A stretch of 62,095 nt of DNA from Patescibacteria group bacterium (GTDB lineage Bacteria > Patescibacteriota > Minisyncoccia > Phycocordibacterales > JAKFXT01): assembly GCA_021731245.1 (NCBI GenBank), contig JAKFXT010000005.1, forward strand, positions 1-62,095, given 5' to 3'. The notes under the pieces were generated by a model. It made no database searches and was not told where the DNA came from. It saw only the letters and a program-made list of their open reading frames with translations. Position 1 is the stretch's first letter. Each line of letters opens with the position of its first letter. Of this stretch, positions 972 to 1,232 are shown one piece after another. Both the position numbers and the translations under genes were made by a program.

Positions 972-1160
972 CGATTTTTCAAAGATTTTTTGTGGTCACG
1001 AAGACCCCTCAACTTTGTGGTCACAAGATGAATCTCGACCTACGTTCGCAGGTACTTTTCTCCTTTCGCTACGCTCAACATAGTAAAGTCTTTCGATTCC
1101 TGCACGCACGCAAAGCAGTTTGCGTGCTCAGGAGCACAAAATTATGCTCCGCGAATTTTG

Positions 1161-1232
1161 TGCTCCTGGCAGGAATCGAACCTGCATTTCTCCCTTCGCA
1201 GGGGAGTGTCCTATCCATTGAACGACAAGAGC
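1161..1232 (-). tRNA. tRNA-Arg (anticodon GCG)
   Basis: The reverse complement folds as a cloverleaf: acceptor GCTCTTG/CAGGAGC, D stem GTTC/GGAC, anticodon arm CTCCC-CTGCGAA-GGGAG, and T arm GCAGG-TTCGATT-CCTGC. The discriminator is A. Confidence 0.85.

Follow-up and report, generated by a model that had tools for sequence, protein, structure and literature searches.

The tRNA-Arg(GCG) gene and its trailer

We analysed a stretch of 62,095 nucleotides from a Patescibacteria group bacterium (contig JAKFXT010000005.1; the whole stretch is called the window hereafter), with a focus on the trailer of its tRNA-Arg(GCG) gene, in which an initial annotation had pointed out a box complementary to the T arm of the same tRNA. 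The window is gene-dense bacterial DNA of ~36% G+C that contains a 23S rRNA gene with a group I intron, a 5S rRNA gene, seven tRNA genes and, among its protein genes, PilMNO, UppS and RuvX; its closest relatives are metagenome-assembled genomes (MAGs) of Patescibacteria, the candidate phyla radiation (CPR), assigned to Azambacteria, Parcubacteria and Minisyncoccia. An organellar origin was considered and rejected on the basis of these genes and relatives. ARAGORN and the Rfam tRNA model (64 bits) place the gene for tRNA-Arg(GCG) at 1160-1232 of the minus strand, and its trailer is an array of repeats neighboured by a beta-helix-like open reading frame (ORF; 84-971, no Pfam match) and a gene for a small membrane protein. 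The step in G+C content that had been described at this tRNA is real, the first kilobase having 45% and the next few kilobases 33-39%.

The box GCAGGAATCGAA (1092-1103, minus strand) is an inverted copy of tRNA positions 54-65 (TTCGATTCCTGC, 1169-1180), and an inverted-repeat search confirmed complementarity at 12 of 12 positions, with AGAC directly following at 1088-1091 as described. Two hairpins had been placed between box and tRNA. The first is present at 1129-1168 and is one base pair longer than had been given: one arm (1154-1168) is made up of the acceptor 3' strand and the trailer, the other (1129-1143) is the inverted copy of it, and the two pair at 15 of 15 positions around the loop CGCGGAGCAT (1144-1153). 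The second, likewise present, has nine base pairs (GCACGCAAA/TTTGCGTGC, 1106-1114 and 1119-1127). Read in the tRNA sense, the trailer consists of CAGGAGCAC-AAAATT, the loop CGCGGAGCAT, AATTTTGTGCTCCTG, AGCACGCAAACTGCTTTGCGTGCGT, GCAGGAATCGAA and AGAC, so that both arms combined form a perfect 27-nt inverted copy reaching from tRNA position 54 to trailer position +6 and interrupted by a hairpin of 25 nt. The 12-mer of the box occurs in the window only at its own site and as its complement (shuffled sequences are expected to give 0.2 matches with at most one mismatch), and a chance origin of the pairing is excluded.

The box is one part of a larger unit

The box belongs to a conserved unit of ~150 nt that spans 1013-1159 and represents the second of two core types described below (type 2). 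On the minus strand, its elements follow each other in the order P0, box, AGAC, P2, P3 and decayed direct repeat, and the upstream sequence that it copies, hereafter X, comprises tRNA positions 54-73 and the beginning of the trailer. P0 (AGCACGCAAACTGCTTTGCGTGCGT, 1104-1128), a type-2 module inserted between the anti-acceptor and the anti-T segments, is identical to the second hairpin of the initial annotation and belongs to the GCAAGCAAACTGCTTTGCTTGC type of hairpin found in type-2 units; it is supported by a multiple alignment of units (A2), by a covariance model (R1, see below) and by compensated changes relative to the orthologous locus of a related genome (L139). AGAC is the conserved 5' start of the core in the unit alignments. 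It is followed by the P2 hairpin (TTTAC...GAAAAG, 1055-1087) and by a TACCTG junction, the P3 hairpin (CGAAC GTA GGTCG, a 5-bp stem with a GTA triloop) and AGAT (1032-1054), all of which are recovered by A2 and R1. A direct-repeat search identified the end of the unit as a decayed direct copy of the tRNA 3' end (TCATCTTGTGACCACAAAG, 1013-1031; 11 of 19 positions identical to the tRNA). Behind it, at 984-1012, comparison with L139, which has the complete counterpart at 6061-6168, revealed the remnant of a second unit of type 1 (GGGGTCTTCGTGACC followed by ACAAAAAATC). The trailer of tRNA-Arg(GCG) thus combines a type-2 unit with, behind it, what remains of a type-1 unit.

The predicted minimum-energy fold of tRNA-Arg(GCG) with its trailer (-89 kcal/mol, z=-6.2) is a 27-bp hairpin with P0 as a side branch, and it sacrifices the T arm and the acceptor stem of the tRNA. 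In a read-through transcript, the 27-bp pairing is predicted to out-compete the cloverleaf; how much this would weigh in vivo depends on the extent of read-through and on co-transcriptional folding. Since the downstream copy has decayed in this unit, the tRNA itself is the one sequence with which the box and the anti-acceptor segment can still pair well. Between 850 and 1350, neither strand has a terminator-like site, a U tract or a promoter consensus.

Units lie behind tRNA, 5S rRNA and ribosomal protein genes

The window contains ~11 units of two related core types, situated behind tRNA-Arg, tRNA-Val, tRNA-Leu, tRNA-His, the 5S rRNA, rplK and rplL. All of them (~11 of ~11) are oriented like the upstream gene, including the only minus-strand case at tRNA-Arg(GCG). 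As had been proposed, the same architecture is found at tRNA-Leu and tRNA-His, with 12/12 pairing between 8910-8921 and 8972-8983 and between 9066-9077 and 9170-9181, respectively; the 12/12 box relation was not found at the window's tRNA-Ser, tRNA-Arg(TCT), tRNA-Val and the tRNA at 57487. The tRNA-Leu unit (8910-9006, plus strand) consists of X, a hairpin (8927-8971), the box and a truncated type-1 core (8984-9006) that is matched weakly (15.6 bits) by the type-1 covariance model R2. The tRNA-His unit (9066-9270, plus strand) has the same order of elements as the tRNA-Arg(GCG) unit: X is followed by a terminator-like hairpin (9092-9126), P0 (9146-9167), the box, P2 (9186-9229), P3 (9230-9254) and, here well preserved, a direct copy of X (9255-9270; R1 44 bits, E=1.3e-9; fold z=-4.6). 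Behind tRNA-Val (5897-6160, plus strand), there are two type-1 units at 5937-6025 and 6070-6160 (R2 52.8 and 44.5 bits) and a 20-nt direct copy of the tRNA's own 3' end at 6014-6033, 100 nt downstream.

The units behind other genes decide what the box copies. The coding sequence (CDS) of rplL ends in GAAGGTTGATCT (48578-48589), which pairs at 12 of 12 positions with AGATCAACCTTC (48595-48606), and GAC follows directly; the unit as a whole (48578-48690, plus strand; R2 E=6.5e-9 with default filters, gene assigned with Pfam) continues with a type-1 core (48608-48671) and then a displaced former CDS end (AAGTAGATTTGAAATAA). Likewise, the rplK CDS end GATAGATATTAA (14867-14878) pairs 12/12 with TTAATATCTATC (14883-14894), followed by GAC and a type-2 core, behind which lies a second, hybrid unit (14867-15134 in total, plus strand; R2, pairing and Pfam). 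The 5S rRNA gene (57062-57167) is followed by two tandem units (57168-57458, plus strand; covariance models and folds), both with the type-1 core motif CGGAGCG-CGACGG-CGCGAG. Each closes with a copy of the 5S 3' end, GCAGTAGGTAG(A/T)CGCCAG(C/A)AC, and the TTTTGGC in front of each copy mimics the 5' strand of 5S helix I. The rule is hence an inverted copy of whatever the upstream gene ends with. The initial annotation had taken the T arm as such for the target, which is not supported, for the units behind rplL, rplK and the 5S rRNA invert the last 11-20 nt of those genes instead. In a tRNA the final ~20 nt happen to begin in the T loop, and for this reason alone the box resembles a complement of the T arm. 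It is better named an "anti-upstream-flank" box.

A lone degenerate type-1 core (R2 17.5 bits) lies at 37465-37538 inside a perfect 13-bp inverted repeat (ATCCGCCCTTGGC / GCCAAGGGCGGAT), away from any recognised tRNA or ribosomal protein gene, and no upstream copy of its flank was seen there. Several other features were observed at or near the RNA genes of the window. A free-standing LAGLIDADG ORF (8103-8840, Pfam PF14528) ends 6 nt before tRNA-Leu(GAG), and at tRNA-Ser(TGA), which has no such ORF in the window, another LAGLIDADG ORF of L139 (3644-4711) runs into the start of the tRNA gene; from this comparison, homing-endonuclease genes beside tRNA genes seem to come and go. A 107-aa ORF (5399-5722) with two CxxC pairs and, by eye, an HNH-like C-terminus ends 5 nt before tRNA-Arg(TCT), and it has no Pfam match at E<=0.001. 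The tRNA at 57487-57593 was found by Rfam (107 nt, 42.6 bits) and not reported by ARAGORN; its anticodon region appears to hold an insertion of ~35 nt, which may be an intron, and a clean intrinsic terminator lies behind it. Finally, the 23S rRNA gene (51989-56639) spans 4650 nt compared with 2925 nt for the model; its group I intron lies at 55031-55317, and ORF-bearing insertions are also present (54412-54918 and 55705-56007). Insertions of such kind are common in CPR rRNA genes.

A family of structured repeats with two modular cores

To our reading of these loci and of those described below, the units constitute a widespread and apparently undescribed family of small structured repeats of ~90-180 nt with two modular cores. 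A complete unit consists of the gene 3' end (X), a loop or hairpin, inverted X, (A/C/G)GAC, the core and direct X, often followed by a real terminator. The direct copy of X begins at tRNA position 56-58, and the loop between X and inverted X often holds a terminator-like hairpin. Type-1 cores read GAC-GGAG-[hairpin]-CGAG-TC, then GG, then GGTCGCG-[hairpin]-CGTGACC; type-2 cores read (A)GAC-[long hairpin]-TAC(N)G-[5-bp stem, GTA triloop]-AGAT with the P0 hairpin in front. An optional mini-hairpin is common to both types, and mixed tandem arrays of both occur at the loci L022, L026, L047 and L121; tandem units are also present in L068, L096 and L022. Units are on the sense strand, immediately 3' of a highly expressed gene and, wherever a terminator is recognisable, upstream of it.

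Membership of the window's units in the family is supported by covariance models. R1, built for type 2 from six metagenomic units (alignment A3) with all window sequences excluded, recovers the tRNA-Arg(GCG) unit at 1022-1128 on the minus strand with 85.3 bits (E=2.8e-20), and the result is the same with filters off. R2, built for type 1 (alignment A5), matches two units behind tRNA-Val, weakly the one at tRNA-Leu, two behind the 5S rRNA, one behind rplL and one behind rplK. In alignment A2, P0 and the motifs AGACTTTTC and GAAAAGTACC.GCGAC.GTAGG.CGAGAT are common to units at seven different tRNA genes. Rfam 15 searched with the trailers, at gathering thresholds or E<=10, gives nothing beyond tRNA and rRNA, and no description of these elements was found in the literature searched.

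To estimate the breadth of the family, we scanned metagenomes with a pattern of the universal T-loop letters, a gap of 45-75 nt and GGANTCGAA-N-GAC, in which four paired positions were left free (chance agreement 1/256). The scan returned more than 120 loci; 70 of 121 pattern matches have a 12/12 cognate box and 16 more have 11/12, and in many loci the pairing extends through the acceptor strand into the trailer to 18-28 bp. The hosts comprise at least 30 tRNA species or anticodons on contigs of 30-61% G+C; as the sample is anchored on T loops it is biased towards tRNAs by construction and says nothing about their share among hosts. Genes downstream of metagenomic units encode unrelated housekeeping proteins (ProC, a macro domain protein, ClpP, MraY, an EndoIII-like protein, DUF2806). 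A viral collection gave two matches, both non-cognate. CPR MAGs retrieved via UppS show the same layout at tRNA-Val, tRNA-His and tRNA-Leu; in one of them (L014), which has the T loop TTCAAGT, the box is altered to ACTTGAA.

Variants of the same layout but with higher G+C content occur in non-CPR contigs (L096 250-700, L069, L072, L120, L027, L054 and L099). They have the box, a core of the form GGAC-GAGCGG...CCGCGAGC, a direct copy of the tRNA end and tandem units; one of them comes from a human gut metagenome with Gut-1 RNAs nearby. A different arrangement was seen at tRNA-Gly(TCC) of L005 (4008-4080, minus strand), where a 22-nt exact copy of the tRNA's own 3' end follows after 57 nt. This copy has CCA, which the gene's own end lacks, and the 57-nt insert is no typical unit.

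Evolution of units in place

The genome fragment L139 contains the orthologous tRNA-Arg(GCG), next to a protein 79% identical to its neighbour in the window, and there too the gene is followed by a type-2 unit and then by a complete type-1 core. The two tRNA genes differ solely by compensated changes in the acceptor stem. Each genome has kept one matching copy of its own version: in the window, the inverted copy matches the acceptor at 27 of 27 positions and the direct copy has decayed, whereas in L139 the direct copy matches the acceptor at 15 of 15 positions and the inverted copy has decayed. The direct copy was therefore ancestrally present and has been lost by decay in the window. Within the unit, three to four positions of the P0 stem differ and all are compensated, P3 is a 5-bp hairpin with a GTA triloop in both genomes with different sequences, and the inner part of P2 is too diverged to be aligned. 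In the more distantly related L143 the site is empty, with the tRNA present and the unit missing. As judged from these comparisons, the array is ancestral to the window genome and L139, and the inverted copy follows changes in the gene end. The match has stayed perfect beside a strongly diverged spacer, which shows that selection or conversion upholds the complementarity. The box is thus non-random and its pairing actively kept, and the initial reading of it as cognate is supported.

The orthologous array also bears on the suggestion that the region left of the tRNA is an island. Because 972-1159 has its homologue in the trailer behind the orthologous L139 tRNA, this part is a repeat array and no island. 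Beyond it, the beta-helix-like gene (84-971) stands where L139 has rpsT. The gene content left of the array thus differs, which is compatible with a change of genes beside the array, though a single comparison does not prove this and cannot show an integration at the tRNA.

Behind rplL, one or two units are present in five of five relatives. The hairpin formed by the rplL coding end is kept by compensated changes (GAAGGTTGATCT/AGATCAACCTTC in the window versus GAAAGTTGAGCT/AGCTCAACTTTC in L149), and in the arrays each inverted copy matches the copy immediately upstream of it. The downstream direct copies read K-V-D/E-L-K-stop with other synonymous codons. Since they still code for this peptide, they are former coding ends that were pushed outward by later insertions, and the arrays appear, by the argument from the rplL loci, to grow by repeated insertion at the current gene end.

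A probable target-derived stem around a structured core

Given the shared cores, the cognate copies at unrelated genes and the conservation at orthologous sites, we hold it to be very probable that the box is one strand of a target-derived stem in one copy of a multi-copy structured repeat element. Such a unit is bracketed by two copies of the last ~12-25 nt of the gene, an inverted one before the core and a direct one behind it, and two partners would be open to the inverted copy, the gene end that precedes it and the direct copy that follows. The latter pairing would close the core with a helix that mimics the terminal helix of a stable RNA (the acceptor/T minihelix of a tRNA, helix I of 5S rRNA), and the unit might then be excised by the end-processing enzymes of the host RNA, as reported for the rtT RNA of E. 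coli. By a weaker line of reasoning, insertion would duplicate a long segment of the target and, in addition, make a fold-back copy of that segment.

At which level the elements act is a separate matter, on which we lean towards co-transcription of the unit as a 3' trailer and a function as RNA. RNAalifold applied to 14 type-1 units gives P1, P2 and P3 with double changes in 16 of 28 pairs and an invariant G·U. Among 40 units, the first pair of P2 is GC in 20 and CG in 17, G·T is present in 36 of 40 and A·C is rare. The P3 of type 1 combines GC/GU alternation with the invariant G·U, and the P3 of type 2 is almost entirely Watson-Crick with three to five pair types per position. Unit folds have z=-4.5 to -6.2. 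In these alignments, the core helices show conservation through compensatory change and fit the sense strand only. Because units are co-oriented with the upstream gene, including the minus-strand case, transcription fits better than replication, and the hosts are the most highly expressed genes (tRNA, rRNA and ribosomal protein genes).

Several points weigh against the explanation and this preference. The sequencing runs that contain the tRNA-Arg(GCG) locus are all DNA, and the RNA runs of a groundwater relative share only tRNA-like words with it. In the tRNA-Arg(GCG) unit, the downstream copy makes a poor closing helix, and pairing of the box with the tRNA would unfold the latter, the benefit of which is hard to see. 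Perfect palindromes can also be kept without selection by template-switch correction at the DNA level. Where boxes are imperfect, the mismatches show no preference for G·U over A·C and are uninformative on RNA versus DNA, and the metagenome sample, anchored on T loops, is silent on how frequently tRNAs serve as hosts. No enzyme able to move the elements was found in the 62-kb window, and the insertion mechanism is a weak construction from anatomy.

The alternative that survives best accounts for the same units at the level of single-stranded DNA, as non-autonomous mobile elements of the REPIN or IS200/IS605 kind that are moved in trans by a HUH (Y1) transposase reading the conserved hairpins; the target-derived stems would be by-products of insertion that template-switch correction keeps perfect. 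High copy number, modular hairpins and boxes without an excess of G·U are in keeping with it, short-loop palindromes are known to be prone to such correction, and a 234-aa Y1_Tnp gene (PF01797, IS200/RAYT-type HUH transposase) lies upstream of the rplJ-rplL array, 1.6 kb from it, in two relatives (L145 7658-8362, L146 42-746). This gene is a candidate for the mobilising enzyme. It is present neither at the syntenic place nor elsewhere in the 62-kb window (tblastn), however, and neither target duplications nor target-derived stems are known from REPINs and IS200/IS605 elements. The orientation of these elements tracks replication, whereas that of all ~11 units tracks the upstream gene, and an invariant G·U such as that in P3 is a trait more of RNA than of DNA. 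We regard this explanation as unlikely; action as RNA and a life as a DNA element are not exclusive of each other.

Far less probable is a second alternative, in which the repeats are leftover att sites of integrase-borne elements in the T loop of tRNAs (T-loop sublocation) and the box is an old attP arm. Direct repeats from the T loop to the tRNA 3' end are the classical signature of such integrations, reportedly so described by Williams in 2002, and the gene content beyond the array does differ from L139. But there is neither an integrase nor cargo between or beside the repeats, the inserts measure just 90-180 nt and have a conserved covarying core across at least 30 tRNA species, the same elements occur behind protein genes and 5S rRNA, and the inverted copy is cognate to each host, unlike an attP arm; this reading is largely refuted. 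Hardly any credence is left for an ordinary 3' trailer hairpin or intrinsic terminator that uses the tRNA 3' end as an arm and was locally selected for termination or 3' protection with no mobile element involved: the canonical terminator-like hairpin that many type-1 units hold between gene end and inverted copy, the location of hairpins at transcript 3' ends and the z=-6.2 of the Arg trailer would suit it, yet the tRNA-Arg(GCG) region (850-1350) has no U tract or terminator consensus, local evolution cannot give shared cores at dozens of unrelated genes and genomes, direct repeats and displaced rplL coding ends stay unexplained, and the matches of covariance models built from unrelated loci contradict it.

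Two further groups of candidates were rejected. A retro-copy of the mature tRNA does not fit because the inverted and direct copies reach into the genomic trailer and the presence of CCA is not systematically different. Retrons, group I/II intron guides, T-boxes, hammerheads and other ribozymes have core motifs that do not fit, and there is no Rfam match.

Comparison with known systems

The closest known analogue to the units is RtT RNA, encoded by rttR in the 178-bp repeats of the E. coli tyrT-tyrV locus (RF00391; the tyrT-rttR region, L138, corresponds to NC_000913 1286700-1287330). Like the present units, RtT lies directly behind a tRNA on the sense strand in tandem units, opens with a box (GGGGAAGGAT) complementary to positions 58-67 of tRNA-Tyr, contains within its GC-rich structured core a helix flanked by tandem G·A, and closes with a direct copy of the tRNA 3' end, CCA included. 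Its layout fits the family; of its parts, the tRNA-Arg(GCG) unit has the direct copy in decayed form and, as tandem partner, the type-1 remnant. The processing of rtT RNA and its link to the stringent response were reportedly also described by Bösl and Kersten in 1991. The Rfam consensus of RtT is closed by exactly the helix between box and copy (Rfam RF00391; PMC8250186), and rtT RNA has been described as a processing product of the tyrT transcript with a link to the stringent response (10.1101/2024.07.17.603846). The same preprint, based on mobilome sequencing, describes raised coverage of exonuclease-resistant DNA over tyrT-rttR under stress (10.1101/2024.07.17.603846), which could reflect hairpin or circular forms of RtT.

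In sequence, the cores differ and have no detectable homology in either direction. RF00391 does not match the window at the gathering threshold, nor at E<=10 in 900-9500, and does not match 20 + 8 related Patescibacteria loci even at E<=5, whereas it recovers four units with 133-137 bits in the E. coli positive control; conversely, R2 has no match at the E. coli tyrT locus. Furthermore, the present family also occurs behind protein genes and 5S rRNA, and nothing comparable was seen in the one E. coli locus examined.

Other small repeats share single properties with the units. REP/BIME, REPIN-RAYT and MITEs (ERIC, Correia, RUP, BOX) are non-autonomous and can stabilise upstream RNA, and like the units they are short non-coding multi-copy hairpins in transcribed 3' intergenic positions, often between stop codon and terminator. 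They differ in having element-specific terminal repeats and no or very short target duplications, while here the outer stem is target sequence, different at every site, and a 12-25-nt direct copy follows the unit. In particular, a REPIN is an inverted pair of element-specific REPs with no target-derived stem, and the stems found here match the host gene. Integration sites of tyrosine integrases in tRNA genes likewise show a direct repeat from the T loop to the 3' end and a displaced native end downstream; in the present case there is no integrase, the inserts are tiny, an inverted cognate copy is present and the hosts extend beyond tRNA and tmRNA. With RNAs of the 3'ETS-leuZ type, the units may share the release of a stable or functional RNA from a tRNA trailer by tRNA processing, but these RNAs are without copies of the tRNA end and are not repeated elements.

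Implications

The combination of a long target duplication and an inverted copy with the same boundary is unusual anatomy, and to our knowledge a flank that is both inverted and direct and derived from the target fits no known insertion chemistry. It therefore suggests either that DNA is made or moved here in a manner not yet described or that, at the RNA level, pairing with the 3' end of the host transcript is needed. The term "anti-T-arm box" needs widening to the target-derived stem of an RtT-like structured repeat family. Rather tentatively, we propose a new class of mobile structured elements, abundant in Patescibacteria and found in other phyla as well, that, when inserted at the 3' end of a heavily transcribed gene, would write inverted and direct copies of its last ~12-25 nt and thereby build a site-specific stem around a conserved RNA core; on tRNA and 5S rRNA genes this stem would borrow the processing of the host RNA, and RtT would be the lone enterobacterial example.

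For genome annotation, displaced gene ends and copies of tRNA ends of this kind can pass for att sites of genomic islands. If the proposal is true, RtT, which has been known from E. coli since 1978-1991, would gain hundreds of natural variants and a general rule that covers them, and the streamlined Patescibacteria genomes would be seen to give over much of what little intergenic space they have to one repeat family (~11 units in 62 kb).

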